Below are positions 7,377-63,304 of a DNA stretch of 64,000 nt, piece after piece. The notes beneath the pieces were generated by a model. The model saw only the letters and a program-made list of their open reading frames with translations. It ran no database searches and was not told the origin of the DNA. The stretch spans positions 70,899-134,898 of the forward strand of contig PLZJ01000003.1 of the NCBI GenBank assembly GCA_003152105.1, in the 5' to 3' direction. Position 1 is the stretch's first letter. Each line of letters starts with the position of its first letter. A program made the position numbers and the translations under genes. The stretch comes from Candidatus Levyibacteriota bacterium (lineage in GTDB: Bacteria > Patescibacteriota > Microgenomatia > Levybacterales > UBA12049).

Positions 7377-7390
7377 AAAGGAGGAGTCTC

Positions 7391-7540: not shown

Positions 7541-7582
7541 CCATTGCACTGTCGATTACTAAGCAGAAAAAGAAAGGGTGAC

Positions 7583-7750: not shown

Positions 7751-7903
7751 ATTCCAAAAGGAGTAAGGTGCCAGGTTTGGTAGGGAAAGAGTATATCTTT
7801 TAAAGGAGGGGCGTAATGCGATAAGCATACACAACTATTTAAAAACTCAATTCCTACCAGACCAAATCCTACAACGAGACAAAAGTACGGTTTGTGCTGC
7901 TAC

Positions 7904-18545: not shown

Positions 18546-18554
18546 AGTATCCCT

Positions 18555-19690
18555 TTTTTATTTTAGTTTTCGTTTTTGTAGCATGTAGTTTCTGTTTGTG
18601 GGTTTGTTGTTGTTATTTACTTTTTGTGTGTGTAAGTCGGGATGGTGAATAAGAGAAGCGCAGGGCGCAAAGGTGCGTTGAAAGCACAAACTCTTACTCA
18701 CCAACCCGGGAGACTTACTAAAAACAATGAAAAAGACCCGTTTGGATCAAAAAGGTCTCAATAGAGGTGTTGACGATGTAATTGAACGACTCCGATCTTC
18801 TTGTATGAAGGGCAATAATGTGTGGCTGTCTAGGACCCGGCAAAAGCTGAGTGCATATGACATGTAGATGCCCCTTTGGTTACGTCGCGGATGTGAACCA
18901 CGATTATTTTTTGTGTAGCGATCGGAACTACTCGATTTTCTCAGACTGAGTCAGTTTAGGCGGTGGCCGAGCTATGCCAAAATGCAAACCTTTTCTTCTC
19001 CGTATAAACAGTGAATTTTGACGTGCATGTGTCATGCTGAAGCGAACTTACGCAGCAGCTCGAAAGGGATCGGTGGTTGTGACGTCTGCCATACAGGTAG
19101 CGCAGATTGCGTTTCGAACGAGTGCTCGTACAACAGTACTAACGTGTCTGCCCTTGACCAGCCCGAAAGATTCCAGAACATGGAAATATTTCGCAGGATA
19201 TGTCAGAGCTTCAGCACGTCGACCATTGCAGAGAAGATGAAGGACATATGTTGCCACATGTTCTCCTCGCTGCACAAGTCTATTGATCTTGGCATGAACT
19301 GCTTCGATCTGCTCTCTTGAATACGTACTCCCATCTTTTAACGTCACGCGTTCTTTTGCCACAGTGAATCCCCACATGATATGAATTTGACGGTGATTTA
19401 GATACTACGCTTGCAACTTTTCAGTGACTGTGTCTGTGAATTATTCGTTTAAACGTTCAATTTGTATTCCCTCTTTTCTTGAAAAATTTGTCATAGAAGA
19501 TGACTTTTTGCATATAAAATACTTCTATACAAAAAGTCACCTACTATGGTTTTTTCGCTATTGTTTTTAGTAATGTCAAAGTGCAATTAATTCTTTGTAT
19601 ACAAGCAAAACGGCTTTTGTTTTGCAGTACGCAGACAGTATAGCAAAAGTATATTTCATACTCAACTGTACAAATGGCGTACAATTGACA
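18555..19690. other. About 1.1-kb GC- and G/T-rich region with no credible host-like ORF, dense in hairpins; candidate structured noncoding RNA or degraded foreign insert
   Basis: Composition differs sharply from the flanks. An 86-nt imperfect hairpin lies at 18633-18718, built from GTAAGTC...ACTCACC...GACTTAC, with nested GCGCAGGGCGC and GTGCGTTGAAAGCAC hairpins. Confidence 0.35.
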
Positions 19691-21428: not shown

Positions 21429-21821
21429 CTATTGAAAAAATGTAGGATTTGGTAAGTTGTCTTTAAATGTAACTCCTTTGTTTATTCCATCTAAGACAAC
21501 AAAGTCAGATCCCAAACCAATACCCCAGCCATTCCCATTAACACGAACTAACCCATACTTTATCTTTCCTACCTGATAGACATGCATACCTGGTCGACCC
21601 TGTGGATCTCTATTTGGATTGTGACTGTCGATCAGTTCAACAATATCTCTATTGCTTTCCATGCACGCATCCATTTCTTCGTCTGTTGGAAATGTTGGCT
21701 CAATAAACAAAACATCTTCAAATGTATTATCATCATTGAAATACCGCATGAATTGAAGCAAACGTGTGGGGTTTTGACTTTCCCTATCTTGATACATTGA
21801 TCCTTCTATTTCTTTTGACAT
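21429..21821 (-). CDS. Hypothetical protein (130 aa)
   Basis: ORF track only. Confidence 0.45.
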   Translation of the reverse strand: MSKEIEGSMYQDRESQNPTRLLQFMRYFNDDNTFEDVLFIEPTFPTDEEMDACMESNRDIVELIDSHNPNRDPQGRPGMHVYQVGKIKYGLVRVNGNGWGIGLGSDFVVLDGINKGVTFKDNLPNPTFFQ

Positions 21822-23048: not shown

Positions 23049-24794
23049 ATGGAAAAAGATCAAAAACAGTATCAACCCCCAAAAGAATTTACTCCAGCGC
23101 TTAAAGAAGCATTAACTGGTTCGGACATTCAAAACTTCCTCGATAGGATTGCAATTGCCGGAGGAGCATATATTGATCCAGAAGGATTACCAGATCGAAG
23201 AATAAGCACTAACTGTGAAGCATTATCTGAGGTAGATAGGTTTGTGAAAAATGATGTAATAAAACCTGAGATGACTCATGCTGGCATGGAAACATTTGAT
23301 CATCCCATGGGAGTGTTAGGTATTTATCCAGGGTCTGACCCAACACTTGATCCAGTACTTTTGCTATCACACTATGATTCAGTACCAAATGGAGGAAGAT
23401 ATGATGGCAAAGTTGGGGTTGCTCTTTCTGTAAAAGTAGTTGAAGCTATGAAAAAGCAAGGCATTAAACCAACACGAAGCATTGCAGTGCTTGCTTTAAC
23501 AGGTGAAGAATCAGCAGGATTTAATCAAGCACTTTTTGGAAGTAGAGCAATGTTTCAAGGGTTAACTGAAAGTGAACTTGCATCTCACCGTATAGGTGGC
23601 GCAACAATTGGTTCTAAGTTAGACGCAGATGAACTAGAGAAAGTTAGAAAGCCATGGCTTGGACCACAAGGCATGTTTTTACAACATATCAAAGCTGCAA
23701 TTGAGCCGCATGCTGACTTAGATGGAAGTATTATCCAAGATGGAAAGGAACTGGGTGTTTACACAGGAATAGCAGCACCTGATCGAAGAATTATTTCTAT
23801 TGGTAATACACCTCTTGTTGCAGAACAAGAAAATGGAAATGAACAATTTGCCAAACTAGTAGTTCACGGTAAAACTGGTCATTCTGGTAATACGCCAATG
23901 GGAAAAGATCATAGAGTTGATGGGCTTGTCATTACTTCGGATCTCATTCTTGGATTACCAAAGTTAACACAAATGTTTGAAGATGCAGGAATACATGCAG
24001 GTATTTCCATTGGTGATATACATGTTGAAGGTCAAGCAATGAATAAAATTCCCGGTACTACTGAAATGCAAGTTCGCCTTACGCAAGAAGATCAGTGGCA
24101 AGGAGAAAAAGCCTTAGAAGTCCTTGCAAAATGGATTGAGCTAAAAAATACATCGCTCAAAGCAATATACCCTCATGAAGATACACTTGTTACACTTGAA
24201 CAGTTAGATCAAGCGAGCGCAAAAGACTTCTATGATCCAGATGCCATGCAAAAAAGACTTAGAGCTTGTGCGGCAGTTATTAAAACAACAAACGAAGTAG
24301 GAGAAGCTTTCAGTAATCAAGATAATAGAGCAACGATTTCAACTATTCACATGCAAAATGGCATTATAGAACTTGGCGCAGACAGAAGAGGAATAAGCGC
24401 TCAAGCAAGGAAAGAAATGATAGATCAGATTTCTCAAAGAATTGATGCCATAACAGACGCAAGCGTTTCAATGAGCCCTCCTTTACCAGGAAGCAATAAT
24501 CCTGTTACTCTCGATCCTTCCCTTACATCTGTATTAGAACAAACAGCTAGTACCTATGGGATCAGCTTGAAAAAAATGTTTAGTCCTGGAGGACATGATA
24601 TTATGAATGTTAGCGATGTGGGTATTCCAAGCGCAATGCTTGTTGTACCTAGTAGATCACGAAAAGATCTAGGACTTGCTTTTGATCCCAACTCAGGAAT
24701 GGGACATAATCCTGATGAATATTCAACGCCTGAAGATTTAGAAAAAGGAGCACAAGTGTTATATGCTTCTGTATTAGAACTCGTTAATCAGTAA
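23049..24794 (+). CDS. M20-family metallo-amidohydrolase (allantoate amidohydrolase / N-carbamoylase-like) with an N-terminal extension
   Basis: Zn-binding His/Asp/Glu pattern of M20 enzymes. Substrate unknown. 581 aa is long for the family. Confidence 0.6.
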   Translation: MEKDQKQYQPPKEFTPALKEALTGSDIQNFLDRIAIAGGAYIDPEGLPDRRISTNCEALSEVDRFVKNDVIKPEMTHAGMETFDHPMGVLGIYPGSDPTLDPVLLLSHYDSVPNGGRYDGKVGVALSVKVVEAMKKQGIKPTRSIAVLALTGEESAGFNQALFGSRAMFQGLTESELASHRIGGATIGSKLDADELEKVRKPWLGPQGMFLQHIKAAIEPHADLDGSIIQDGKELGVYTGIAAPDRRIISIGNTPLVAEQENGNEQFAKLVVHGKTGHSGNTPMGKDHRVDGLVITSDLILGLPKLTQMFEDAGIHAGISIGDIHVEGQAMNKIPGTTEMQVRLTQEDQWQGEKALEVLAKWIELKNTSLKAIYPHEDTLVTLEQLDQASAKDFYDPDAMQKRLRACAAVIKTTNEVGEAFSNQDNRATISTIHMQNGIIELGADRRGISAQARKEMIDQISQRIDAITDASVSMSPPLPGSNNPVTLDPSLTSVLEQTASTYGISLKKMFSPGGHDIMNVSDVGIPSAMLVVPSRSRKDLGLAFDPNSGMGHNPDEYSTPEDLEKGAQVLYASVLELVNQ

Positions 24795-25687
24795 ATTCAA
24801 GGGTGGATTTAAAAATGATAATGAGTTTGGTGAGAAAGTAAACGCGGATGCGTATAAGGGTGCAAGATGCACTAAGTAAAAATGAGAAAATTCCCACCAA
24901 ACTCTTCTTTCTACACATCTATGCTCCTCTTCTTTTTTTTGCCTTTGCAAAACCTTTTTTTATTCCAAATTGGAATGATGTTTGACAGTTGTCGTTTTTT
25001 GGTTATTGGTTTGGCTTAGGTGTTTGTGGTTGTGTTTGTTTGGTTTACTATGTAAACAGTGTTGATTTGGTCTTTTAATTGACAATTGTTGTATGTATGC
25101 AATACCTGTCTGTTTTTGTTTTGCTCTTCTTTTTTGATATGGCAGAATGCAGTTTTTTTGTTGATTTCAAAAAAAAAGGAAAGGAGAGGGGCGGTTCTCC
25201 TTTTTGCATGTCTGAACCTATCGAAGGGAGAAGAAGAAAGAAGAATCGATCCAGACCTGCATGCTTGCACAGCATTTTGCGTTTTGCGTGCAACGGACTG
25301 CGTGTGACACATTGGTATCTCAAGTTCGAGTTTCGAACGAGTGCATCAATGCATCTGGAATTGGAACATCCTTGGGAAGGATAGAGCTTGTCTTTGTAAC
25401 TTTCCGCCCCGTTTCGAAACTGTGATTGTCTTTTAATCCGTTAGAACTAAAAAACCAAGGATAGTAGATTTCCTCATCACATGCGTCGAATAAAGCAAAA
25501 GACTAGCAAAAGTAAAAACGAGCTTTACTTCTCCTGGCCTTTTGCTTAAGAGCAAAAAGTATCAAAATAAATGTAGAATAATTGTAGAAAGATTTTTAAT
25601 GTACAAATGCTTTTGCCTTTTGTACACAGCTGTTATGCACTATGACAAAAGCATCATAGTATAGCAAAACTGAGAGTAAAACGCAAT
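24795..25687. other. About 0.9-kb GC- and G/T-rich noncoding stretch at the left edge of the higher-GC block; the track ORFs here overlap in several frames and are judged spurious
   Basis: Hairpin at about 24838-24910 (TTTGGTGAGAA...TTCCCACCAAA) followed by a T-rich tract, a likely terminator for the M20 gene. G/T-rich run 25015-25075. 10-nt palindrome GTTTCGAAAC at 25413-25422. Confidence 0.3.
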
Positions 25688-26419
25688 CTACTGTGGGGAA
25701 ATGTATAACGCAGTTGAAGAGTCGTTGTTTGCAGTTATAATAACAACACATTCGTTTCTGGTTAAAAACGCTGCTTTATTTTTTGGATAGATCGTACCAT
25801 TTGTCATAAATCCTTTTTCAGAAACACTACTTGTTCTGATAAAAATTTCGTTTTGTTCTATATCTGAAATATACCCACCAGTTCCACTAATGCCCCCTTG
25901 CGGAATAGGATGAAGAAGCGTTGGTGGGAGAAAAAGAGCCCATCCAGGAGAAAGAGCATCTGAGCTAAGAAGAGAAGGATAAAGCATGCTGTTAACTTCG
26001 ATTATGTCAGAGGTTTTGTCACTACTACCAAGCTCTGATTTGGCAATTGACTGGAGTGTATCTGTTTTTTTCACTACATAGGTTGTTAAATAATCGTCTT
26101 TTGGCAAAATACCTACATTTTTACAAAGTAATGGTCCTGTTGCGCTCATTTTCTGAAGTGCGACTGCTTGTTTTTGATACACACCAATTTGCACTGCTCT
26201 CCCAATCATGTAGCCAATAAATCCAAACATATAGCCAGAAAGAAGTGCAACAAGAAGCACAAGAAGCATTCGTTCCAGATCAAATCGCTTTGAAATGAAC
26301 ACGTTTTTTTCACTTATCATTTTCTTATCCACATAGTTAGTATTGTATAGAAGAAGAAGTCTTGTCAAGAAATGTGGGAAAGATAGGGGATAAGCACATG
26401 TGATGTGAACGGTGTGCAA
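25688..26419 (-). CDS. LysM-domain membrane protein
   Basis: TM helix followed by the LysM motif YVVKKTDTLQSIAKSELGSS...IIEVN...L.PGWALFLP. The true start may be the internal Met at about 26320. Confidence 0.5.
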   Translation of the reverse strand: MHTVHITCAYPLSFPHFLTRLLLLYNTNYVDKKMISEKNVFISKRFDLERMLLVLLVALLSGYMFGFIGYMIGRAVQIGVYQKQAVALQKMSATGPLLCKNVGILPKDDYLTTYVVKKTDTLQSIAKSELGSSDKTSDIIEVNSMLYPSLLSSDALSPGWALFLPPTLLHPIPQGGISGTGGYISDIEQNEIFIRTSSVSEKGFMTNGTIYPKNKAAFLTRNECVVIITANNDSSTALYISPQ

Positions 26420-26455
26420 GAAGCACTCCTCTTATCCCCAAAGGGTCTTTCCAAG

Positions 26456-26794
26456 TTATTGAAACGGTATGAGTATGGTTGAACTGATGACACCTAAAAA
26501 GGCGAAAAACACTACAAAGATAGCAAGGAATGATAGAGCCAAAAGGCCATCAAAAACAGTCTCTCGCACGTATTTTTTTGAAGGACTCCGAAGCGCAGTC
26601 ACAAGCGTTAGCAAAAGGAGCAAGAGCCCTAAAGCGAGCAAAAGTAAGTTTGCGTTTTGTCCTGAAACAGCAGTCCGAACAACGGGTAGTGAAAACACGC
26701 TGATTGCGTAAAACATCACCGATAGGCAAAAACCGCAGACAAAATAGCTTCCAACGATCGAAAGATTCGACAAAGCCAAAAAATGTCGGGTCAT
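26456..26794 (-). CDS. Small membrane protein (112 aa)
   Basis: Three or four TM helices. Part of the higher-GC block. Confidence 0.4.
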   Translation of the reverse strand: MTRHFLALSNLSIVGSYFVCGFCLSVMFYAISVFSLPVVRTAVSGQNANLLLLALGLLLLLLTLVTALRSPSKKYVRETVFDGLLALSFLAIFVVFFAFLGVISSTILIPFQ

Positions 26795-26811
26795 AACTGT
26801 CTCCTTATTTG

Positions 26812-27159
26812 TTAGAAAAAGTGCGCTTTGGATATTTTGTAGGCAAGTAAAATGAAAAGTCCTGCATATGCGTAGTCGTAGATGTTAAGAACTATGAACC
26901 ATTTACGTTTTTGAGAAACCTCCATTGATGCTACTTTTCTAAACTCCGAACTAGTAAGTCTCCATGTACATAGAATAAAAACCAGTCCAAAGAGTGTAAA
27001 AAGTACAAAACTCCAAAGTAGTCCGTGTTGCATTTGAATCGTAACACTTGCGATGCGAAAGACAAATGCTAGGGCAAACGCGAAAACAAGTCCTTTACCT
27101 ACGTTTTTAATGAGTTCGTAGAAAAAGAAACAGATGCGAAGCGATAAGTCTTCATTCAT
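26812..27159 (-). CDS. Small membrane protein (115 aa)
   Basis: Three TM helices. Part of the higher-GC block. Confidence 0.4.
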   Translation of the reverse strand: MNEDLSLRICFFFYELIKNVGKGLVFAFALAFVFRIASVTIQMQHGLLWSFVLFTLFGLVFILCTWRLTSSEFRKVASMEVSQKRKWFIVLNIYDYAYAGLFILLAYKISKAHFF

Positions 27160-27182
27160 TGCGATTTCCTTTTATCGTCATA

Positions 27183-27521
27183 TTACAGAAGGAATGGAAG
27201 AAACAAAACAACTATAAACCCAAGAAGAACGAAAAACAAATACCATGCCAGTATGAATTGGAAAAAGCAAAGTATTTGCCGTGTTGAGAAAAAAGACTGA
27301 GAATCATCAGAATAATCCCAAAGAGCCACCATCCAAACTACAAAAGAAACTGCCAAAAGCACAAGAAAGAAATATTTCTCCTGCATTGATGAGACAGTGA
27401 TGCCGCTTAACTTAACAATGAGTATGGAAGGAACTGTTGCGAGTACGCCCCCAAGGTATATCCAAAGTCCCAAGACGTCTAAGATATTGTTTATGTGTTG
27501 AACGTTTTTAGACATTTTCAT
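27183..27521 (-). CDS. Small membrane protein (112 aa)
   Basis: Start corrected to the ATG at 27521 (MKMSKNV...), preceded by GGAGAAGAA. The longer track ORF reads through an inverted repeat. Confidence 0.5.
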   Translation of the reverse strand: MKMSKNVQHINNILDVLGLWIYLGGVLATVPSILIVKLSGITVSSMQEKYFFLVLLAVSFVVWMVALWDYSDDSQSFFSTRQILCFFQFILAWYLFFVLLGFIVVLFLPFLL

Positions 27522-27570
27522 TTCTTCTCCTTTTTTTGTGTAAGTGTCTTTTAAAACGCGTGAATAACAG

Positions 27571-27626
27571 CTTAAGATGAGAAAGCAAAAGACAAAAAAA
27601 TCTATCTTCTCCTGCCTCATCTTAAG
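27571..27626. promoter_or_regulatory. 11-bp perfect inverted repeat CTTAAGATGAG / CTCATCTTAAG with a 34-nt spacer, upstream of the 27521 gene; operator or 5'-UTR hairpin
   Basis: Seen directly in sequence. Confidence 0.35.
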
Positions 27627-27757
27627 ATACCGTTTATATAACTTGTGAAAGAGCAAATACATTCTCATTTCTTCGTTTTACAGCAATTGTGAAACGCGAA
27701 ACGTGAACAGAGGGGAGTATAGCATAGATATGAAAAGCTCTCAACTATAGGATGAGC

Positions 27758-28366
27758 TTATTCTTGATTCGTACGCTTTTTTTGCGTTAATGAATAGCGA
27801 AGCAGTGTGCCGCCAAAATATTCAAACAATTTAATAAAGCCAATATGTTCAAAAAATGATAATCCCTCATCATTATCAGAGGAAACATCAACATAGACAA
27901 ATTTTGCTTGTGCTTTTTTAAACTTTACAATTACTGAATGCACAAGCGCTTTTCCAACCCCTGTTCGAACGTGTGTTGGATCAACAAAAAGTACCACAAT
28001 TGCCGCCGTATTATTGCCAAGTAAGGCTTGGATTTTTCGCTCAAATAAGAGTCGCTTCACTACTTTTTTAGGAGTTATACCCCCAGTTAAAAAACGGAAA
28101 AAAAGTGTAGGGAGTGAACGAAAGGTAAAAAGTGTATGCATTGCTTTTTGCGTATTTCGAATATGTGTTGTTGCGATAATAACGCCAATTAAATGTCCTT
28201 TTTCAAATGCGCCAAAACTAATGTGTTGTTTTGGATGAGAAAGAAGTAATTGATAGAGACGTGTAACGTATTTTTTCCCAAGATATGACGATGTATCAGA
28301 AACTGCGCTTTTATGAAGACTGGCTATTTCTTCACTTTGTACGTAACTAAGAGGTGAAATATGCAT
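27758..28366 (-). CDS. GNAT-family N-acetyltransferase
   Basis: Motif A VDPTHVRTGVGKALV. Confidence 0.7.
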   Translation of the reverse strand: MHISPLSYVQSEEIASLHKSAVSDTSSYLGKKYVTRLYQLLLSHPKQHISFGAFEKGHLIGVIIATTHIRNTQKAMHTLFTFRSLPTLFFRFLTGGITPKKVVKRLLFERKIQALLGNNTAAIVVLFVDPTHVRTGVGKALVHSVIVKFKKAQAKFVYVDVSSDNDEGLSFFEHIGFIKLFEYFGGTLLRYSLTQKKRTNQE

Positions 28367-28572
28367 AAATGTTTATCTTTGGGTCATTATATAGATCAGT
28401 GTAACAAAATTCAATTATTGTCCTGTAGTACTTGCCATAGAATACGCTGTTTGCTATACTACCAAAGCTAAAATTGGCAACATACAACAAAAGCTGTTGT
28501 ACTTCTTGCTTTTTTGCATTTGCACATTTACAAGTTGCGGAAAATACATAAAACATTACAAGGAGAAAACGC

Positions 28573-28710
28573 ATGTTACTACTTATCGCTTTTGCTACTC
28601 AGATTTCCCATCACTCGCAGGCAGCTTCGCTATGGCAGATTTTGCTTGTTATGCTAGGACTCGGTTTAGGTATTCCAACTGCTGCCTTTTTGTTTGTCGA
28701 AACACTGTAG
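28573..28710 (+). CDS. Putative 45-aa membrane peptide
   Basis: AAGGAG, 8 nt, then ATG at 28573. Translation MLLLIAFATQISHHSQAASLWQILLVMLGLGLGIPTAAFLFVETL. Not in the ORF track. Confidence 0.3.
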   Translation: MLLLIAFATQISHHSQAASLWQILLVMLGLGLGIPTAAFLFVETL

Positions 28711-28764
28711 GAAGCTTCGAATCCAAATCGCTTAACAACTCAACTTTCATATTAGGAGTAAAAC

Positions 28765-28980
28765 GTGAAATCTATCGAATCTTTTTTTGCATCGCTCATC
28801 CTTGCACTTGCAATACTTGCACTCATATGTCTGGTCGTTGGATATGCATTCATCGTCGACTTTGGGTGGTATTTGTGGGGCATTCTCATTCTTGTGTATC
28901 CAGTCGTCTTTTTTGTTGTAGTTTTTTCAATGTTTTACATGGGAGTAACACATAAAAGAGAAGAAAGGAAACGACGATGA
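28765..28980 (+). CDS. Small two-TM membrane protein (71 aa), GTG start
   Basis: AGGAG at 28754-28758. Its TGA overlaps the next ATG (ATGA coupling). Confidence 0.45.
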   Translation: MKSIESFFASLILALAILALICLVVGYAFIVDFGWYLWGILILVYPVVFFVVVFSMFYMGVTHKREERKRR

Positions 28981-29264
28981 GACATCAATCGGTTGTTCAA
29001 GAGTATGACATAAGCACGTGGCGCTTTGGAAAGAATGAAGACGTTTTGCTTCGTCTGATTTTAGACCAGTTGTGCAGACACGACAACATCCACGTCGTTT
29101 GTTCAGTTGGCAGAAAGCTGTTTTACCTGAAATTTAGCTTTACGATTATCGTGAAGGGAGATTGGCTTGGACAAGTAGAGGGTGTTTGGCAAATGAAACA
29201 GTTTTGTAAAAAACATCACTTTAGTTTCGATGGACTTCAAAAAACCGACTACATGCATCTGTAA
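28977..29264 (+). CDS. Hypothetical protein (95 aa), translationally coupled to the upstream gene
   Basis: ATGA overlap at 28977-28980. Confidence 0.45.
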   Translation: MRHQSVVQEYDISTWRFGKNEDVLLRLILDQLCRHDNIHVVCSVGRKLFYLKFSFTIIVKGDWLGQVEGVWQMKQFCKKHHFSFDGLQKTDYMHL

Positions 29265-29457
29265 CGACTGTCTCGCTCAAGACCACTACTCCTTTTTTCA
29301 AATCCGCAACACATATGTGCTGTGAGGCAAGCTCTGTCGTCAGACTTCTCTTTCCCAAGAGAAAACTCTAAACGTCACCTTGCCCACACTCATTTCATTA
29401 TATTTGAGAGTAAATTAGTATATTGACACCTGTGAAAAATCCCCCTACTATTAATAT

Positions 29458-29796
29458 ATGCTAGAGTTATTAGTTGGAATACTAGGAATGCTTGCAGGTC
29501 TTTATTTACTCCTTCTTTCACCAGGAGATTTCTTAAACTACCTCATTTTCATATTAGGACTGCTCATTTTATGGCGCTGGTATAAAAGAAAATATACTGT
29601 CTCAAAAAAAGCAAAAAAAAGCAAAAGTTCATTTGACGCAACAATCACTGCAATAGGATTTACCATCGCAGTACTTGGTATTGCACTGCAATTTATTGGC
29701 ATCTTGCTTGGCTTTTCTGTTCCAATGGTTGTTACAGCCCTTATTATTCTTGTCGGGCTAATGACCTTTATTCTTGGTATCTCTACGCGAAAATAA
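29458..29796 (+). CDS. Membrane protein (112 aa) with a basic cytoplasmic loop
   Basis: Four hydrophobic helices and a KRKYTVSKKAKKSKSS loop. Confidence 0.5.
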   Translation: MLELLVGILGMLAGLYLLLLSPGDFLNYLIFILGLLILWRWYKRKYTVSKKAKKSKSSFDATITAIGFTIAVLGIALQFIGILLGFSVPMVVTALIILVGLMTFILGISTRK

Positions 29797-29846
29797 CTTC
29801 GGTTGTTCTTTTTTCAGTTTTTACCTGGTTTTTTTAGTGAGTAATG

Positions 29847-29966
29847 TTTTGTGTGTGAGGAAAAGGGTGTCGTAAGGGTAAGTAGAGGCTGAAAGGCCAA
29901 AAAAAGTCACTCATGTGACTAGTGTTGACCAAACAACATACTCACCCTCACGGCGCACTTACATAC
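29847..29966. repeat. About 120-nt structured G/T-rich element, second copy of the hairpin module seen at 18621-18720
   Basis: Begins TTTTGTGTGTG and ends ...ACTCACCCTCACGGCGCACTTAC, with an inner AGTCAC-TCAT-GTGACT hairpin. Lies between the convergent genes ending at 29796 and 29977. Confidence 0.35.
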
Positions 29967-29976
29967 AGAGATTGAA

Positions 29977-30174
29977 CTAGTGGGAAAGACGGAAGAGGCG
30001 ACGCAGAATCTCTCGTGACTCTTTTGGTTGTGTGATGAAAAGTGACGCTAGCAAATAGCCAATAATTGACAAAATTGCAACTGCGGCAAACATCATCACT
30101 GCGCTAAAGATATATACGACGAATTTGGACGCGACGGTTGTCATGTTAATGTCCTTGTGATCGAGTTGGTTCAA
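29977..30174 (-). CDS. Small membrane protein (65 aa)
   Basis: ORF track. One or two TM helices. Overlaps the upstream gene. Confidence 0.3.
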   Translation of the reverse strand: MNQLDHKDINMTTVASKFVVYIFSAVMMFAAVAILSIIGYLLASLFITQPKESREILRRLFRLSH

Positions 30175-30715
30175 TTGCGATACTTCGTGCCTTAATCATA
30201 CTGTTTGCATTTTCGAAGTGACGATCTGGCTCGAGTCCGTGAACGTATAGACAGAGTAAAAATCCATCTTCATTTCGAATAAACTCGAGCTTTGCGACGG
30301 TGCCGATTTGTATGACTTTTGATTCTCCTTTTTTTGTATTTGTGACGATTTCCCATGCAAGGTCGAGTAATTGATCTTGATCGCATACTTTCTCAAGCTG
30401 TGAAACCATTTCTTTCTGTACCTCTTGGAAGTGATCATACACCTGCATCAAGTTGACGAAGATGTCGACGATTCCTTCCGCAAGATAGAAGCTTTTGACG
30501 TGCTCAAACTCAGCGTTTGCCACAAGACCTGCAAGTGTGATAGTAACGTCTTCGCCCTTTGCATCATATACGTACGGTGCCGGAGAGTTGAGCCACTTTT
30601 TAACACTGCGTCTTGTGCGATGTCGTCGTTCGATAAACCGAAGAAGCTTCTTTCCTTCATCTGTACGGTACAAAACGTCTTTGATGTCATCAAACGTAAC
30701 ATTGGAAAAATCCAC
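30146..30715 (-). CDS. Hypothetical protein (189 aa), higher GC
   Basis: ORF track. No recognisable domain. Confidence 0.5.
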   Translation of the reverse strand: MDFSNVTFDDIKDVLYRTDEGKKLLRFIERRHRTRRSVKKWLNSPAPYVYDAKGEDVTITLAGLVANAEFEHVKSFYLAEGIVDIFVNLMQVYDHFQEVQKEMVSQLEKVCDQDQLLDLAWEIVTNTKKGESKVIQIGTVAKLEFIRNEDGFLLCLYVHGLEPDRHFENANSMIKARSIAIEPTRSQGH

Positions 30716-31251
30716 AAGCGCTCCATTTTATTGTATTTCCCAAAAGTTAGGGAAGAAAAAAGAATAGTATTACTCGTCTTTCTTCCCTAACCTTCCATTC
30801 TCAGTTGTAAACGTGCGAAAAAACTCAGAAAGAGACAATGGAAAAACAGCTATTGCAATTCGATGTCATTTTCTGTGTAGGAAGTATAGCACAAAATGCT
30901 CTGTAATCTCAACTATAGGGTGTTATTTTATACCTCAACAAAAGTCTTATAATAATTGACTTTACCTCTTGGGAGGCATATAATTCCCACACAGTCGTTG
31001 GTGACTTTCGTATACTACAGTACATAAGCTGTGCTTTTGTGACAAAAGATATCAACACTTACTCGCACATTAAAAACAAAACCTATATCCTAGAGTGTCA
31101 TTTGCTCTGGTTGCAGGAAAAGAGGGGAAAACGTTTTTCTCTTGTTTTTCTGCAATCACCAAGCAACACACATAAAAGGAGTACATATACAACAACGCGT
31201 CTGGCTATTTCGTTTCATTCTCATCTCACAACAAAAGGAAGGTAAGTGAAC

Positions 31252-32484
31252 ATGCTTTTTCGCGTCGCAACTATGGCTTTTTCGCTCTCGTTTCTCTCAA
31301 CTGCTGGTATCGCAAGCGCATCTTCACAGATGACAAATGCGCAGACCGTGCAGGCAAACATTCTCTCAGCACAACTGACGAAAACATCGTTTGTGGACAG
31401 CAACGGACAAAGCGTCTCACTTCCACAAGTGCAGCTTTGGACGTGGATCAATGGCCCCCAGGTTTCGTACCAAGTCATGGCATATGGTCCCATTCAAAAC
31501 GGATCGTTTGAGCCAAGTCTTTCATCGATTCCAGCAAGTCAAATCCAAAACGGCCAAACCAACTACATGGTAGTAGGTATTGCACCTGATGGCTATTCTG
31601 AACCGATTACTGACGGCATTGTCTATGCAGGAAGTGACCAAGCACAAACTGAGCAAATTGCAAATGAGCAATCAAGCTTTGCGAGAGTCACTGTCTCACA
31701 AGATGAGCTTTCAGCACTGTCTGGAACAACAGCGCAGTCGCAAGGAGCACATCCGCCGGACAACTGTATTGCCCCCCTAGGAGGGTATGTATACGTGTGG
31801 CTTCATAGTTACACGGATAAGTACACGGCAATTGGACAAGTGCATTCGATTCCAGGACTTCATAAAGTAATGCTCTCAATCCATCACGGCGCAACAGCGA
31901 CAGTGACAGCAGGTCTTTCAAAAGACTTTGGAGCAAACTTTAGTGTCGATGGAGAAGTCGGCGTTACCAACACACAGGAAAGCTCAATCAAGCGGCCCTT
32001 TGTAAATGTTGGTAACTATGCGCACACGCTCAAACTGCAGTACAAGTACGACCATCAGTCCCTTGAGTACCGCTGCTGGTACATTGACTATCATGGATAC
32101 AAGAAGAAGTGGTACGTCCACCATTTCCCTTGGGTTCATGTGGTAGCAAACAACTGGGACGGCGGCGGCTATATTGTCGGCAAAGACGTGTCCTACATGG
32201 ACAACTGGACGCCAAAGCAACTACGCAGTAGAACCGTAAGTCAACTCTGTTGTGGTGAAGAATACACCACCGGAGGACAAAAGGCGTTAACTGAAACTGG
32301 TGCTGTAACAGCATGGGGCTTCACCGCATCAGCTACGCTTGGCTTTTCAAACAGCACTGAACTTTCGATTCAAGCTGCAGACAGCGGAAGAGTGTGTCTT
32401 TACGATGCAGTCGAAAATCTTCCTGTCAATCTGGCAAGCGTGGTTGACGAAACAAAGTACTACGGCAATCACTGTCAACAATAA
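31252..32484 (+). CDS. Secreted hypothetical protein (about 410 aa) with a signal peptide
   Basis: Signal peptide MLFRVATMAFSLSFLSTAGIASASS. AAGGAAGG RBS. About 50 % GC. Cys-containing extracellular domain. Confidence 0.6.
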   Translation: MLFRVATMAFSLSFLSTAGIASASSQMTNAQTVQANILSAQLTKTSFVDSNGQSVSLPQVQLWTWINGPQVSYQVMAYGPIQNGSFEPSLSSIPASQIQNGQTNYMVVGIAPDGYSEPITDGIVYAGSDQAQTEQIANEQSSFARVTVSQDELSALSGTTAQSQGAHPPDNCIAPLGGYVYVWLHSYTDKYTAIGQVHSIPGLHKVMLSIHHGATATVTAGLSKDFGANFSVDGEVGVTNTQESSIKRPFVNVGNYAHTLKLQYKYDHQSLEYRCWYIDYHGYKKKWYVHHFPWVHVVANNWDGGGYIVGKDVSYMDNWTPKQLRSRTVSQLCCGEEYTTGGQKALTETGAVTAWGFTASATLGFSNSTELSIQAADSGRVCLYDAVENLPVNLASVVDETKYYGNHCQQ

Positions 32485-32495
32485 CTGGAGGTAAG

Positions 32496-33110
32496 ATGAG
32501 GGTTTTTAAGATCGTCGGCTCAGTCTTTGTTCTTGTCATTTTGGTAGGGTGCTTAACGGGCGCGATTCGAAGCGGTGCTGTTCATTCTTCCCATGCGTTC
32601 CTCAAACATACGTTTACCACAACAGTGAAAAACACTACTGTTGGGCAGACAATCAACTGGGGATCGGGAATTGAGAACACATCACCAAGCACTGTCATTA
32701 TGCAACAGGCACTGCTTGAAAACGATTCAAGTACTGATGCACCACTTGGCAGCGGCTCATTAGTTAACGAGGCAATAACAGATCACAACAGTGGTCTTGT
32801 TGGCGTTTGCGTCGGATGGCCTCCATGCAACGGGTACAAATGGGGAACAACACCTCATCCAAACAACTTTGCATTCAAAGGTAACACCATCGGCAATATC
32901 ATGCTCTCGTTTGTCATCCAAACACCCGGTGTCTACCAATTTGAACTGGTTCTCCAGTACAAACTCACCGGCATGCCAGGAGGATCGTTTGCAGACCCGT
33001 TTTTTGGCGCACCACTTGTGACAGAACACACACAACAGTTCCTAAACATATGCGTTTCCGAAAAAACACGCAAATGCAACGCGCTCCTTTCAACACTCCC
33101 AATACATTAG
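32496..33110 (+). CDS. Putative lipoprotein (204 aa)
   Basis: Lipobox-like LVGC after the signal helix. Adjacent to and co-oriented with the secreted protein. Confidence 0.55.
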   Translation: MRVFKIVGSVFVLVILVGCLTGAIRSGAVHSSHAFLKHTFTTTVKNTTVGQTINWGSGIENTSPSTVIMQQALLENDSSTDAPLGSGSLVNEAITDHNSGLVGVCVGWPPCNGYKWGTTPHPNNFAFKGNTIGNIMLSFVIQTPGVYQFELVLQYKLTGMPGGSFADPFFGAPLVTEHTQQFLNICVSEKTRKCNALLSTLPIH

Positions 33111-33270
33111 CCTATTAGGTTTTGTCGCGAGTCTAAGATGGGTCGGTTAAGTGATTAAATTCACGTATGCTAGTTCTACTAGTATATTTCCGACCCCTCT
33201 TATTCTCATCATTTTCCAAAACAACTTTATCTTTTTTAACAATCAAAAAATATGACAATTTTTTCTCTTC

Positions 33271-33290
33271 TTATATATATAAGAAGGGGA
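33271..33290. repeat. Perfect 20-bp palindrome CTTCTTATATATATAAGAAG at the right boundary of the higher-GC block
   Basis: Seen directly in sequence. Confidence 0.4.
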
Positions 33291-33388
33291 GAATAATTTT
33301 TGCTGTTTTAGCTTCAAAATGGGTGTTTTTTTTCACCTATACCCTGTACTATTTTAGGTGATATATTTTTAGTTAAAAAAAGAGGAAT

Positions 33389-34183
33389 TTACCTATCTTG
33401 TTTTCCTTTTTTCCAGGAAACTGCAGTAAGAAGGGGAGCATATAAGTCGTCATCTAACCCAATATACACTGCATCGAGTTCTTCTTTTGTTGGATTTCTG
33501 TCCTGAAAGGATACAAACGGCAGATCTTCTATGATAGCAAGTGGCGTTTGCTCATTTCCTTCTCCCATAACAAGCACTGATGCAGACGCTAAACTATCGC
33601 CAATATGGAGTTTTTCGTATTGAAATAACCTACCAAAAATATCTGGGGTTCCGTCATAGTGCTTTAAGATTTCAAAACCAGAGTGGGCAATACACATACC
33701 TGTTACTCCCCAGCGCATTGGCGTTGTTTTTGAATCAGTAATAATGACGCCAACGTGTTTTAAATTAAATTTGGTTTGTAAAAAGGAACGGATCGTATTT
33801 GCACTTTCCTGTAAGTCCCTGGGCCAAAGAACGTAGCTTCCATTAGCATTTGATTCGTCTATCCCTGCAGCAGCTCCTAACATATTGTGTGAAATGGTAA
33901 TACACAAATTATATTTAGAAAGACTTCTTGGTAAAAAATATGCTGCTTCTTCTTCTATTAATTCATCTTTATCTCTTGTTAGTGGTGCTATTCTTCTCTG
34001 GGAGATTGCCATAATTTTTGACGTTATTGCAACAACACTGTTTTCAGATAGTTGGGTTATGTATTTATCTATTATCTGAGTAATGTCAGTGTCGGCTGTT
34101 GTAATGACACGTGTTTTTATTCCTGTTATTTTCACTACGGTATTATATAGGAAAGATGAGGGAGTTACAAAATTACCTGTCAT
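33389..34183 (-). CDS. CofE-like protein (F420-0:gamma-glutamyl ligase family)
   Basis: Family-typical GVIITDS...P.RWGVTGMCIAHSG region. 264 aa. Confidence 0.75.
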   Translation of the reverse strand: MTGNFVTPSSFLYNTVVKITGIKTRVITTADTDITQIIDKYITQLSENSVVAITSKIMAISQRRIAPLTRDKDELIEEEAAYFLPRSLSKYNLCITISHNMLGAAAGIDESNANGSYVLWPRDLQESANTIRSFLQTKFNLKHVGVIITDSKTTPMRWGVTGMCIAHSGFEILKHYDGTPDIFGRLFQYEKLHIGDSLASASVLVMGEGNEQTPLAIIEDLPFVSFQDRNPTKEELDAVYIGLDDDLYAPLLTAVSWKKGKQDR

Positions 34184-37401: not shown

Positions 37402-38142
37402 ATGAAACATATACCACATTTATTCGGATTTATCGCAAGTTTTATAGGTATTATAGTATTATTTTTACTGGTTGCCAAACCTGCCTATGGGACTTATACT
37501 CAACCTTCATTTCCTTCATGTTCAGCTCCTTCGGGTACAATAATCGCAAGTTATGCAACCGGAACGCACGCAATTGCAGGAGACCCAAATCTTCATACCG
37601 GTTCTGATACGGTATATCAAGAATCAGATATAACAGTTATGCAGTGTTTTTGTCCTGACGATTTAAGTGGAAAAGGTATTCAAACAAATTGGTGGGACGT
37701 TGCGGATTTATCATCTGATGACATACAAACACTAATTGGCAATGGATGGATAAATGAACCAAATGGATCTGATTGGGGACTCAATAACGCACCTTATCTT
37801 GCCATGAATAGCAATTTTGATTGTTCAGCCGAAACCCCAACACCTACACCAAGTGTGACGCCAGAAATAACGCCAACAGCAACGCCTTCGGCAACCCCAA
37901 CACCAAATCCAGGTAATGGATCAGGTGGTGGAGGATCGTCTTCAAGCTCATCTTCAAATTCAGGTGGTAGTTCAAGTACTAGCTCACAACCTGCAACCTC
38001 TCAACCTGCAGTACAAACGCTAGCTTCAACAGGTACATTTTTTGAAAACGCAATGAGTTATGTTTTTGGACTTGGCATATTATTTATACTTATGTCGCTT
38101 AACAATTATGTCAAAGAATCGTTCCAAATCAAAAAAAGCTAA
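37402..38142 (+). CDS. Sortase-substrate surface protein with LAXTG-type sorting signal (LASTG) and a Thr/Pro/Ser-rich linker
   Basis: Signal peptide, a Cys-containing domain, a TPTPTPSVTPEITPTATPSATPTPNPG...SSSSSSSNSGGSSSTSS linker, then LASTG, a hydrophobic helix and a basic tail. Confidence 0.7.
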   Translation: MKHIPHLFGFIASFIGIIVLFLLVAKPAYGTYTQPSFPSCSAPSGTIIASYATGTHAIAGDPNLHTGSDTVYQESDITVMQCFCPDDLSGKGIQTNWWDVADLSSDDIQTLIGNGWINEPNGSDWGLNNAPYLAMNSNFDCSAETPTPTPSVTPEITPTATPSATPTPNPGNGSGGGGSSSSSSSNSGGSSSTSSQPATSQPAVQTLASTGTFFENAMSYVFGLGILFILMSLNNYVKESFQIKKS

Positions 38143-38683
38143 AACCAATAGATTTTTGCCCTCTCTGTACACACTTATTCCGCTCATTATTGGCGTTTTT
38201 TTCCTTATATTGTATGCGTATTGGTATATTGCCTTTGGACCATATTCACTTCAGTTTAACAGCGTACCAAAAGCTTTTACGAGTTCTCTCTCAACCCCTG
38301 TTAGTATTTCGATTCCACGAGAAAAACTCACTCTATCCGTATCAGAAGCTGCTATAACCCATAACCAGTGGCAAGTAAGTCAAACTGGAGTTTCGCATCT
38401 TGCCATATCTGCAAATCCCGGCAATAAAGGAAATATTATAATTTATGGGCACAATAAAGACGAGTTATTTGGTAATATTCGAAATCTCCTTCCAACTGAC
38501 CAAATTATTATTCAAACAAAAGACAAAAAGCTTCACAAATATATAGTCTATGCAACTGACACCGTTTCACCAAATGACATAAGTGTCATTGCAAGCACAA
38601 ATAAAGAGGTTTTAACCCTCTATACCTGTACTGGATTTGCTGATTTAGAGAGGTTTATAGTAAAAGCTTATCCTGTAGTATAG
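38108..38683 (+). CDS. Sortase (class E-like)
   Basis: IYGHN catalytic His and TLYTC catalytic Cys (TLXTC). N-terminal membrane anchor. Start placed at MSKNRSK (38108). Confidence 0.8.
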   Translation: MSKNRSKSKKAKTNRFLPSLYTLIPLIIGVFFLILYAYWYIAFGPYSLQFNSVPKAFTSSLSTPVSISIPREKLTLSVSEAAITHNQWQVSQTGVSHLAISANPGNKGNIIIYGHNKDELFGNIRNLLPTDQIIIQTKDKKLHKYIVYATDTVSPNDISVIASTNKEVLTLYTCTGFADLERFIVKAYPVV

Positions 38684-38863: not shown

Positions 38864-41800
38864 ATGGACAGAAACATTTCTATTATTGTTCCAACATATA
38901 ATGAAGAAGGAAATATTGTTCCGCTATTAAATCGTATCCACAAAGCCGCAAAAACCGCAAAACTAACCTATGAAGTCATCGTTATTGATGACAATTCAAA
39001 AGACAAAACACTCAAAAAAGTTAAGGCACTAAAGTTATCTTATCCAGTCACTGCACCAAAGAAAAATGGTAAACCAGGTAAAGCATATTCGTTGCTTCAA
39101 GGCTTTTCACTTGCAAAATATGACACTATTTGCATGATTGATGCAGATTTACAATATCCACCTGAAGCAATACCACTCATGTTTGATCAAATCCAAGAAG
39201 GAGCAGATATTGTTGTGGCAAATAGAATTAAAGAAAATGCAGGACTAAAACGAAAAATAATCAGCAATACGTTTCGATTTGTATTTGGAAGATTACTACA
39301 TGGTTTCTCAGTAGACGTACAATCAGGCCTTAAAGTCTTTAGAAAAAGGGTGATTGAAGAACTTTCTCTTTCACCTACATCTGCATGGACACTTGATATG
39401 GAACTATTAGTAAAAGCACGAAACGCAGGCTTTGTCATTTCTTCATTTGACACCGAGTTTGAACAAAGACATGATGGTGATGCAAAAATAAATTTAACAA
39501 GAGCAACGTTTGAAATTTTAAAAAGTGCACTAGAACTTAAATTTCAAAGAACACAAGTTGTGCCATTTACCAGCGAAAAAGAAAAAGAAACGGGAAAAGG
39601 ATTTCACCACAAAGGAAAACAATATATTCATTATTCAAATCTCCCGCAAGAAGAAACAGCGTTTTTTAGACTATCGACAATCCAAATGCTTCTTATTTGT
39701 GACTTAGTACTGGTGCTTATCTTCTCACTACTTGTTAATTGGCACCTTACCTTGATTATTATTCTTGCATTCTTAACGCTTTTCTATTTTATTGATTTGT
39801 TTTTCAACTTATATTTAATATTACAAAGCTTATCAAAAGAAATTTCAATTGGCGTCACAGAGGAGGAACTTGCAACTCTAAAAGACAAAGATCTTCCGAT
39901 GTATACGATTTTATGTCCGCTGTACAAAGAGTGGAGAGTTGTACCGCAATTTATCTCTGCAATGAACAATCTAGTATACCCAAAAGACAAACTTCAAATT
40001 ATGCTGCTGCTTGAAGAAAATGACACAAAAACAATTGAAAAGATAAAAACATATGTACTTCCTGATATGTTTGAAATTGTCATTGTTCCAGATTCAAATC
40101 CAAAAACAAAACCAAAAGCACTCAATTACGGACTCCTCGTTGCAAAAGGGGATTATACCGTCATTTACGATGCAGAAGATATGCCAGATCCACTCCAACT
40201 TAGAAAAGCACTTATTGCATTTTCTAAACTTCCTAAAAAAGTCATCTGTATCCAAGCAAAACTTAATTTTTATAATCCAACCCACAATATTCTCACAAAG
40301 CTTTTCTCAGCTGAGTATGCACTTTGGTTTGATCTTGTACTACCAGGACTGCAGTCACTAAATGCGCCGATTCCACTTGGAGGAACTTCTAATCATTTTA
40401 AAACATCGGTCCTTCGAAGTCTTAATGGATGGGACGCGTTTAATGTAACTGAGGATTGTGATTTAGGAATACGACTTTCGAAAAAAGGCTATCAAACAGC
40501 AATTATTGACTCAACAACACTTGAGGAAGCAAATAGTAATATTTTTAACTGGTTTAATCAACGATCTCGTTGGATAAAAGGGTATATTCAAACCTACTTT
40601 GTGCACACAAGAGATCTTCGAACAACAATCATGTCAAAAGACCAGAAAAAGGTAGCACTCTTTAACATAATTGTAGGAGGCAAAATTGCCTCTATGTTTA
40701 TTAATCCGTTAATGTGGATTATTACTCTTTCATACTTTGCATTTCGACCAATCGTTGGTCCTGCTATTGAATCATTTTATCCTGCTCCCGTACTATACAT
40801 GGGAGTTGTTTGTATTGTTTTTGGTAACTTTTTGTATTTGTACTATTACATGCTTGCGTGCGCCAAAAGAGGGCAAGACAATTTAATTATCTATGCATTT
40901 TTAGTTCCAGTTTACTGGCTTACGATGAGTATTGCCTCAGTAAAGGCAGTCATAAGTATTATTTATAATCCACATTACTGGGCAAAAACAAAACACGGAT
41001 TATTCCTCGAAGAAGCAGAATCGCAAACTGAAAATGAGCAAATGTATGAAGAAACACTTGGCTACAAACAAAACTGGTACGCACCTTCTTTTGTCTATCA
41101 AAAAGCAAAAAATACATGGAAAAGTTCAACACATTTACAAATGGGAACGTTTTTTGCCTTATCGGCAACACTTGCTAATTTCTTAAACTTTTTTTATAAC
41201 GCATTCTTAGGTCGAGTTCTTTCGTTTGATGAATTTGGAACAATAGCACTGCTTAGTAATTTTCTCCTTATTCTAGGTATTTTTATCGAGTCTACCTCAG
41301 GTACTATTTCGCAAAAAATTGCCTACTTTTCTGCAAAAAAACGCCAAGATGCAGCGCTTACTTTTTATAACTATGTAGTAATGAGGATTATTATTCTCGC
41401 AAGTTCTGTCGCAATTCTATGGATGGTTTTTGCACCTTTGCTTGCATTGTTTTTCCACACACAAGGAACGCTCCCAATTATTGTATTTACTCCCGTTATT
41501 TTAATGGCGATGATTACGGCAGTAAACGCAGGGTTTTTACGAGGGAATATGGCGTTTGTCAGCGTTGGTATTATTACGCTTATTGAAGGACTTGTGAAGC
41601 TCTCTTCAATGTTTTTCTTTGTGTTTGAAAAACAACAATCGCTTGCTTACTTTGCAATACCACTTGGTATTTTATCGACCTTTATCTTGACATTAATACT
41701 CACAACCCGTCAACTTGTCAAACAAAAACCAACAACGATGAAAAATACAACTCATTTCCCTTGGAAGTTTTTTAGTTCTTATTTGTTTATTGGCGCCTCA

Positions 41801-62665: not shown

Positions 62666-62703
62666 GCTCCTATATTATTTAGTTAGTTGAATAAAGTCTC
62701 CTA

Positions 62704-63282: not shown

Positions 63283-63304
63283 TGCCTCCTTTTCCTATCT
63301 TTTG

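Follow-up and report, generated by a model that had tools for sequence, protein, structure and literature searches.

Phage 'morons', a concept of Hendrix and Juhala, are autonomous units of a promoter, one or more genes and a terminator, which are atypical in composition, dispensable, located between resident genes and often concerned with the cell envelope or with host interaction. In Borrelia, the upstream homology box (UHB) of the erp-ospE-ospF-elp genes is a conserved promoter/operator located before otherwise unrelated, scattered surface-protein genes, which are carried by cp32 prophage-plasmids and whose lipoprotein products resemble one another in their leader peptides. The ops/JUMPStart sequence is a short conserved leader element of RfaH-dependent, horizontally acquired operons that are atypical in composition and encode envelope or secreted products. 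Here we describe a promoter-leader-hairpin module in a 64-kb stretch of a Candidatus Levyibacteriota genome (the window), where an initial annotation had placed a single horizontally acquired island at positions 24795-33390 (the block). Eight copies of the module (c1-c8) are present in the window, five of them within the block. The module is linked with atypical codon usage, and the c7 copy recurs, together with the gene pair that it precedes and the GC contrast of this pair, on a second low-GC contig.

The units led by the module resemble morons in having their own predicted promoter and terminator and in a composition unlike that of their neighbours (GC content at third codon positions, GC3, of 0.28-0.46 vs 0.23). 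They differ from morons in that there is no prophage context, PHROG matches being confined to the LysM and GNAT proteins without any structural or replication family, and in that they have one homologous promoter-leader-hairpin module in common, which morons do not. The likeness to the UHB is one of organisation, the organism being unrelated: a conserved region stands upstream of unrelated multi-copy genes, implying common regulation and recombinational shuffling. Unlike the UHB genes, however, these units are chromosomal, heterogeneous and compositionally atypical, and their leader contains a long hairpin. With ops/JUMPStart they share a conserved element in the transcribed leader of compositionally atypical envelope or secreted-protein genes, but the ops consensus GGCGGTAG is not present, nor is there any sign of a dedicated NusG paralogue or of antitermination.

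We favour, at a probability of roughly 0.55, the explanation that the region 25.2-33.3 kb is a hotspot of five self-contained, probably laterally exchanged and co-regulated cassettes around a native GNAT acetyltransferase gene. Each cassette would consist of a diverged module copy and one to four cargo open reading frames (ORFs) with raised synonymous GC, the cargo consisting largely of exported or small membrane proteins that belong to no known family and would act at the cell envelope. Several cassettes would end in a terminator-like hairpin. The cassettes may be acquired from a pool of GC-richer genes and later lost, in the manner of phage morons, while the common module would provide joint transcriptional and post-transcriptional control, its hairpin perhaps serving as an operator, in antitermination, as an RNase III element or in stability.

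The promoter-leader-hairpin module

The module is ~150-300 nt in length and comprises, in order, a CCTATAG box, a TTGAGA-like -35 element, a spacer of 17-18 nt, an extended -10 element (TGnTATACT), transcribed AGCTGT and TTGCACATTAACAA boxes, usually a near-perfect hairpin of 18-24 bp and, at the 3′ end, a Shine-Dalgarno site. The c7 copy precedes the genes for an exported 410-aa protein and its 204-aa partner, and a homologous gene pair is encoded on the 2.8-kb metagenome contig L083. There is no nucleotide similarity between the coding DNA of the two pairs, yet their leaders are alike: common to both are TAATTGACTTTA and, further on, TATAAT, a 12-nt identity (CTCGCACATTAA) and a hairpin of the form GGTTGCAG-N33-CTGCAAYC, the upper stem of which differs in sequence while its pairing is kept. 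The alignment of the c7 and L083 leaders has a z-score of 5.1, reached by 0/300 shuffles, and their folding minimum free energies (MFE) correspond to z -3.5 and -3.2, respectively. Rfam contains no family for the c7 leader. Past the hairpin of the L083 leader, at 331-345, a Shine-Dalgarno site is followed by a three-codon mini-ORF (ATG GAA AAC TGA), which has no evident equivalent in c7 of the window.

The leaders of c7 and L083 were used to build a covariance model, which is blind to composition; over the window, it matched c6 (30716-30825; E 1e-4), c8 at 63.7 kb (E 9e-4), c3 (E 0.012) and c1 at 7.05 kb (E 0.1). Three of these regions were then combined into an independent nhmmer profile, which matched c5 (28421-28594; E 1.5e-5), a copy that the profile lacked, and c2 at 19.4 kb (E 0.017), as well as c1 and c3 again. 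The alignment of all nine copies, that of L083 included, extends over ~120 nt and contains four boxes, namely CCTATAG-TTGAGA, TGCTATACT at a spacing of 17-18 nt, ACAAnAGCTGTTTT and TTTGCACATTAACAA. Leave-one-out searches of 2.2 Mb regained 8/8 window copies at E-values of 6e-11 to 6e-3 (c1: 1e-3; c2: 7e-5; c3: 5e-5; c4: 0.003; c5: 1.7e-7; c6: 3e-7; c8: 6e-11), and no further credible copies were found in the window or in 80 other loci of candidate phyla radiation (CPR) bacteria (1.15 Mb). Furthermore, a generic promoter scan had independently called matching hexamers at the module sites. A degenerate pattern of the boxes gives at least 120 matches in a viral collection, which are rejected by the module profile. 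A search of the literature yielded nothing on conserved upstream modules in CPR bacteria, and no Rfam 15 family matched at its gathering score across the window.

The hairpin is present in 8/9 copies, 10-40 nt past the fourth box, with arm sequences that vary between copies. The MFE z-score is -2.1 for c3 and between -3.7 and -6.7 for the seven others. Every copy points toward a downstream unit. The copies are 40-64% identical to one another (about 51%), which indicates that the module is old. Two stretches of 16 nt that are nearly identical (TCTCAACTATAGGRTG on the + strand), at 27739-27754 and 30907-30922, correspond to the CCTATAG/-35 part of c4 and c6.

A repeated element of this length with a long internal inverted repeat, located directly after the stop codons of upstream genes and in one copy (c3) without an intact gene behind it, could be a small mobile promoter-bearing repeat comparable to miniature inverted-repeat transposable elements (MITEs) or Correia elements, the link with composition then being secondary. 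We regard this as very unlikely, as the module ends show neither the terminal inverted repeats nor the target-site duplications of such elements and the copies are diverged rather than near-identical. Furthermore, all copies are oriented to drive the downstream unit, even the gene-less ones precede GC-rich DNA, and the c7 module has been kept together with its cargo in L083.

Module-led units and their composition

The features of the block, of the other module-led units of the window and of the nearest recombinase gene are as follows, promoters, terminators and small ORFs being predictions (TM, transmembrane).

24926-25130 (-): C/A-rich 3′ tail of c3
25180-25203 (-): terminator-like hairpin and T-run, ending cassette c3
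25204-25467 (-): gene-less GC-rich stretch of c3 (GC 0.439 vs 0.32 in host intergenic DNA), no intact ORF
25468-25698 (-): module c3; promoter TTGCGT-17-TGCTATACT, AGCTGT box, TTTGTACATTAAAA box, long hairpin
25688-27521 (-): c4 cargo; three unrelated 3-TM proteins and a TM/LysM protein
25688-26320 (-): c4 TM and LysM protein; GC3 0.28, weak LysM match
27183-27521 (from M50), 26812-27159 and 26456-26794 (-): c4 3-TM proteins; GC3 0.40, 0.35 and 0.42
27522-27753 (-): module c4, 4 nt past the GNAT stop; hairpin 27571-27626
27758-28366 (-): GNAT acetyltransferase (Pfam Acetyltransf_1, E 1.4e-10); no module, promoter-like site 28414-28386
28421-28572 (+): module c5; short, without the long hairpin
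28573-29796 (+): c5 cargo; tiny ORFs of 45, 71 (3 TM) and 95 aa (s95) and a 112-aa 4-TM protein (mem112b)
29905-29920 (-): terminator-like hairpin followed by a C/A-rich tail, ending cassette c6
29977-30715 (-): c6 cargo; 189-aa soluble protein h189 (30146-30715) overlapping a 65-aa 2-TM ORF (29977-30174); GC3 0.41
30716-30921 (-): module c6, head-to-head with c7 at 23 nt; perfect 19-bp hairpin 30743-30794
30945-31251 (+): module c7; TTGACT-17-TATAAT (30956-30984), CTCGCACATTAA (31062-31073), Shine-Dalgarno site; GC 0.38
31109-31157 (+): c7 leader hairpin, GGTTGCAG-N33-CTGCAATC
31252-32484 (+): c7 cargo, exported 410-aa protein; GC 0.48, GC3 0.46
32496-33110 (+): c7 cargo, exported 204-aa partner, beginning 11 nt past the 410-aa gene
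33260-33293 (+): terminator-like hairpin of c7, between the converging partner and cofE-like genes
6848-7800 (+): c1 unit; module 6848-7049, 108-aa 4-TM ORF 7050-7376, at least one tiny TM ORF (7391-)
18546-19671 (-): c2 unit; module 19378-19671, 109-aa ORF 19048-19377, 350 bp of GC-rich gene-less DNA, C/A-rich tail
62108-63874 (-): c8 unit; module 63671-63874, three unannotated ORFs of 121, 192 and 185 aa
34742-35725: Xer-like tyrosine recombinase, 1.3 kb outside the block, past two host-composition genes

The block is a mosaic: five units, each led by a module copy, are transcribed separately and lie in both orientations, and among them is the GNAT gene, which is of host composition. The stop codon of the LysM gene marks the beginning of module c3, such that the cargo of c4 leads straight into it. 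Across the window, 13/18 cargo ORFs encode TM segments or signal peptides. The genes named in the initial annotation were largely recovered: the LysM membrane protein (by a weak match), the GNAT protein, three small 3-TM proteins encoded in tandem (112, 115 and 112 aa, the last figure applying if translation starts at Met50 of a 161-aa ORF), and translationally coupled tiny ORFs, joined by an ATGA overlap between 28765-28980 (71 aa) and 28977-29264 (95 aa). Its observation that the block harbors no phage, transposase or integrase family agrees with our searches of family libraries, and the order of genes likewise agrees with its statement that two host-composition genes separate the Xer-like recombinase from the block. 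A perfect 20-bp palindrome (CTTCTTATATATATAAGAAG), reported at the right end, is present as a terminator-like stem, but lies at 33267-33286, 4 nt to the left of the position given for it.

The 161-aa ORF (27183-27668, -) is a gene in the public annotation. Its true start is probably Met50 (27521): codons 1-49 span the leader hairpin of c4, whereas Met50 itself has a strong Shine-Dalgarno site (AAAGGAGAAG) in front of it. Paralogy among the three c4 membrane proteins was considered and rejected, there being no mutual similarity (z < 2). The plausible small membrane ORFs 26456-26794 (-, 112 aa), 28765-28980 (+, 71 aa) and 29977-30174 (-, 65 aa) are missing from the public gene set. Comparison of all block proteins with Pfam, PHROGs, NCBIfam, PADLOC and PDB gave a match for the GNAT protein and otherwise only weak ones, to LysM and to NgoMIV. 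The latter links the 189-aa protein to the N-terminal residues 25-110 of NgoMIV (PADLOC REase_II: E 1e-3; PDB 1fiu: E 0.08) and misses the catalytic part, and no methyltransferase is encoded nearby; it may represent a remnant or a chance similarity.

Most genes located between ~25.2 and 33.1 kb do have an atypical, foreign-looking composition, and raw GC content greatly understates and misplaces this anomaly. The GC content of the block is 0.400, compared with 0.352 in the remainder of the window, and values of 0.46-0.49 are reached only at 31.1-33.1 kb. The figure of 45-50% GC over 8-9 kb given in the initial annotation does not hold, as only 1.9 kb is at 48%. Likelihood change-point segmentation of the whole window returned one strongly distinct segment (31261-33146; 1,886 bp; GC 0.479), which coincides with the two coding sequences (CDSs) of the exported pair, from the start codon of the 410-aa gene to just past the stop codon of its partner. 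A jump in composition had also been claimed at the M20 stop codon (24794), but 24795-25179 has a GC content of 0.33 and k-mers remain host-like at 24.8-26 kb. The right end proposed at the cofE-like gene, in contrast, is borne out by a sharp edge at 33.1-33.4 kb. Deviations in tetra- and dinucleotide usage reach z ~3-3.7 at 28.5-33 kb only and z ~2 at 26-28.5 kb; a uniform k-mer signature, proposed beforehand as the refuting result, is hence contradicted at 28.5-33 kb and borne out at 24.8-26 kb.

The shift in codon usage came nearer to the truth than that in GC content. Nine block ORFs, namely those of the LysM protein, the three c4 membrane proteins, s95, mem112b, h189 and the exported pair, have GC3 values of 0.28-0.46 (s95: 0.46; mem112b: 0.29), while the GNAT gene (0.22) is host-like and interrupts a region of atypical GC3 and k-mers that extends over ~26.4-33.1 kb. 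In the window as a whole, GC3 is 0.38 in the 14 module-led ORFs and 0.231 in the 52 others (standard deviation 0.030; range 0.16-0.30; Mann-Whitney p 8e-9). The values are 0.35 in c1, 0.40 in c2 and 0.29, 0.35 and 0.42 for the three ORFs of c8. All window ORFs with GC3 ≥0.29 are located in module-led units with three exceptions, one borderline ORF (21429-21821; GC3 0.30) and two spurious ORFs that overlap cassette sequence. Conversely, these units hold no host-like gene except for first or last genes at GC3 0.28-0.29. A further 17.3 kb of flanking sequence from the same scaffold contains no module, and its 23 genes, orphans included, all have GC3 values of 0.16-0.29. The frequency of C in NNY codons rises from 0.21 to 0.42 and that of G in NNR codons from 0.16 to 0.34, and both C and G are raised at the four-fold sites of the high-GC3 genes, which argues for a different mutational background and not a simple preference for C. 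Translational selection for C-ending codons was ruled out as the cause of the raised GC3, as G-ending codons increase equally.

Modules c3 (25.5 kb) and c2 (19.5 kb) precede gene-less DNA of ~44% GC, which is probably the remnant of decayed cargo, and C/A-rich tails are found at the ends of c2, c3 and c6. The stretch 18546-19047 is 500 bp of gene-less DNA with GC 0.44-0.47 in parts, G/T-rich on the + strand and without an Rfam match, the noncoding stretch of c2 having a GC content of 0.445; we read it as the decayed cargo and C/A-rich tail of c2. At the left end of the block, a G/T-rich structured noncoding stretch had been described. The G/T-richness is evident, 24976-25125 being 77% G+T, the maximum of the window, and represents the C/A-rich tail of c3 seen on the + strand, but the folding of the adjoining 25160-25440 is not significant (z -0.5 on the + and -2.0 on the - strand). 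Rfam matches in 24750-25750 and 30700-31300 are at chance level only (E > 0.06). A structured RNA was as such rejected in favor of a decayed cassette and its tail.

The idea of one island acquired between the M20 and cofE-like genes draws on the contiguity of five of the eight atypical units of the window, the sharp right boundary and the Xer-type recombinase 1.3 kb away. Like a classical genomic island, the block combines atypical composition with accessory genes of unknown function. However, it has no internal integrase, no credible flanking direct repeats or attachment sites and a native gene within the mosaic, and neither tRNA nor tmRNA genes are found in the 64-kb window. Its GC content is 40% overall and 48% in 1.9 kb only, its leftmost 400 bp are host-like, its units have separate promoters and alternate in orientation, and identical unit types occur at three other sites of the window. 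We thus consider a single island quite unlikely: the atypical composition and the lack of an internal mobility gene noted initially stand, while the single-island model is largely refuted by the mosaic. As module-led units are also located at 6.8-7.8, 18.5-19.7 and 62.1-63.9 kb, the phenomenon is genome-wide and merely clustered in the block.

The exported protein pair and the origin of the cassettes

Cassette c7 is the only part truly at 48% GC; its two genes would be co-transcribed, and the partner protein is possibly lipid-anchored. Export of the 410-aa protein would be by the Sec route, given its signal peptide (cleavage ASA|SS); the protein contains several cysteines, and modelling suggests only an N-terminal β-sandwich and a β-rich C-terminal half. 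β-Pore-forming toxins of the aerolysin/ETX-MTX2 type were considered as a possible family for it. The 204-aa partner combines a signal sequence or lipobox (LVGC) at the N-terminus with conserved cysteines, a VCVGWPPC motif and a pair of cysteines at the C-terminus. Neither protein has a sequence match in Pfam, PHROG, NCBIfam, PADLOC or PDB. A full HMMER search of 1.84 billion protein-cluster representatives identified three true relatives of the 410-aa protein (P0006: 36% identity over the full length; P0012: 28%; P0015: 23%), while a word-index search returned the query only and an alignment search added nothing further; on the evidence of these searches, it is the founder of a very rare family. 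Residues ~320-390 (GEEYTTGGQKALTETGAVTAWGFTASATLGFSN) resemble one blade of an RCC1 propeller, a likeness which is much weaker in the other family members. Nine RCC1-repeat matches (E 1e-7 to 4e-4) were rejected as homologs, as they cover only this segment, a repeat-amplified local motif.

P0006 is encoded on L083, and the gene for a 211-aa partner homolog is located 5 nt downstream. This 211-aa protein is the sole homolog of the partner among 5.8 billion proteins and shares 33% amino acid identity and the VCVGWPPC motif with it. At the position of the lipobox cysteine, however, it has no cysteine but a site resembling that of signal peptidase I. Both members of the signal-peptide protein and lipoprotein pair of the initial annotation (31252-33110) are predicted to be exported, and the lipoprotein label is uncertain because the lipobox cysteine is not conserved in the only homolog. 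The CDSs of the L083 pair have GC contents of 0.46-0.52 and GC3 values of 0.53 and 0.42, in contrast to flanks at GC 0.35-0.39, which are unrelated to those of the window. P0015 is found in a contig of 52% GC and is at native composition there.

The main rival to lateral exchange is a native regulon, in which vertically inherited, lineage-specific genes would share one dedicated regulator or leader and GC3 would be kept high locally through GC-biased gene conversion in recombining accessory genes, transcription-associated mutation or selection on the mRNA. We consider this possible, although rather doubtful. Two observations in favor of a native regulon are that the onset of the GC increase coincides exactly with the start codon of the 410-aa gene and that no signature of mobility was found. 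It fits less well with the extreme orphan status of the cargo, the 410-aa protein having 3 relatives in 1.84e9 and its partner 1 in 5.8e9, with the unrelated flanks of L083, with the decay of two cassettes and with a remote homolog native to an organism of 52% GC. The synonymous shift in all codon classes is likewise what a foreign background would give.

Several observations weigh against exchangeable cassettes, and some of these speak for the native regulon in turn. The module copies are old, and a foreign GC3 should have been erased by long residence unless turnover is rapid or the bias is maintained. In AT content, the leaders equal the intergenic DNA of the host, and the GC contrast is kept in L083 despite only 36% protein identity, which is difficult to account for by one old transfer. 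A mechanism of transfer is indicated neither by a recombinase, att repeat or tRNA nor by any likeness to phages or plasmids, and searches of phage, plasmid and viral sequences with the proteins, the whole block and the module gave no match. All other contigs with these genes are from the same strain and in the same context; polymorphism between strains was considered for cassette c8 and rejected, eight contigs showing one context throughout. Known copies of the module are confined to 81 kb of a single genome and one 2.8-kb contig, promoters, terminators and small ORFs are known as predictions only, and the AlphaFold models of the 410-aa protein are unusable (predicted local distance difference test scores, pLDDT, of 33 and 41).

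The recombinase at 34742-35725 matches XerD (253 bits) and XerC (249 bits) best and is of host-like composition. Together with the opposed homologous 5′ regions of the block (c6 and c7, which are head-to-head, and c4 against c5) and a cargo of mostly envelope proteins, it could form a phase-variable surface-protein locus of the Mycoplasma vpma/vsp type, in which Xer-type inversion occurs between opposed 5′ regions. This is highly improbable, given that each copy has its own promoter, making inversion unnecessary for expression, and that the copies lack a long identical core at 40-64% identity. Furthermore, the N-termini of the cargo proteins are unrelated, without a common signal peptide or lipoprotein N-terminus, the eight contigs, which derive from several samples, show a single arrangement, and the recombinase is XerC/D-like and host-like in composition.

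An unlikely extension of the exchangeable-cassette explanation is that the module marks a so far undescribed mobile cassette of CPR bacteria, the 5′ hairpin being a recombination site, perhaps for an Xer-type recombinase. As in integrons, the ORFs are small, atypical and mostly orphans, the hairpin is conserved in structure and variable in sequence, and a tyrosine recombinase is encoded nearby. Unlike attC, which is located 3′ of a promoterless cassette, however, the hairpins stand 5′ of the ORFs in a promoter-bearing leader, and at the base of the stem GTT...AAC is found in place of RYYYAAC...GTTRRRY. Orientation varies among the cassettes, each of which has a promoter of its own, and the recombinase scores far below the integron-integrase cut-off (TIGR02249: 122 bits; cut-off 265). 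If true, this would represent an integron-like gene capture built in reverse, in which each unit brings its own promoter, and would provide minimal-genome symbionts with exchangeable envelope proteins.

Genomic setting and implications

The window is part of a 1.14-Mb metagenome-assembled scaffold (ENA ERZ28653421, WOOD18-1 scaffold_5), and the host genome, of ~1.14 Mb, is that of a low-GC CPR bacterium of the Microgenomates type. The cofE-like gene (33389-34183, -) has its best score with TIGR04132, a putative folate-metabolism gamma-glutamate ligase (251 bits, short of the cut-off of 350), ahead of the F420 CofE model. Its product has best matches of at most 61% identity, in Levybacteria and Roizmanbacteria (Microgenomates), which indicates that the host is a small-genome CPR bacterium without close sequenced relatives. 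The M20 gene (23049-24794, +) encodes a 581-aa protein resembling the hydantoinase/carbamoylase-family amidases, with long insertions. Both the M20 and the CofE-like proteins are singletons at 90% clustering. The synteny comparison used 80 cofE-like loci from GTDB genomes, in none of which was a neighboring gene of the window found beside cofE.

Further envelope-related genes are located to the right of the block. The region 37402-38683 (+) encodes a 246-aa secreted Ser/Thr/Pro-rich protein, the C-terminus of which consists of LASTG, a hydrophobic segment and a basic tail, with a sortase gene directly 3′; this is likely a sortase-substrate pair in a CPR genome. A single protein of 1,573 aa encoded at 38864-43585 (+) fuses two GT2 domains to GT4/GT1 glycosyltransferase domains, and its gene adjoins those of a GH18 protein and other cell-envelope proteins.

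The CPR/Patescibacteria have tiny genomes, depend on hosts and encode many orphan envelope proteins of unknown origin and regulation. Accessory orphan genes are ordinary for a CPR genome, while a repeated module that tags every such unit is unusual. Should the module be only a local regulon signal, the replacement of an 'island' by a mosaic would still be a useful correction. As a sequence handle, the module would help to find the flexible gene pool of CPR genomes, to study the expression of newly acquired genes or their protection from silencing, and to single out candidate proteins of host interaction, the exported 410-aa/204-aa pair among them.

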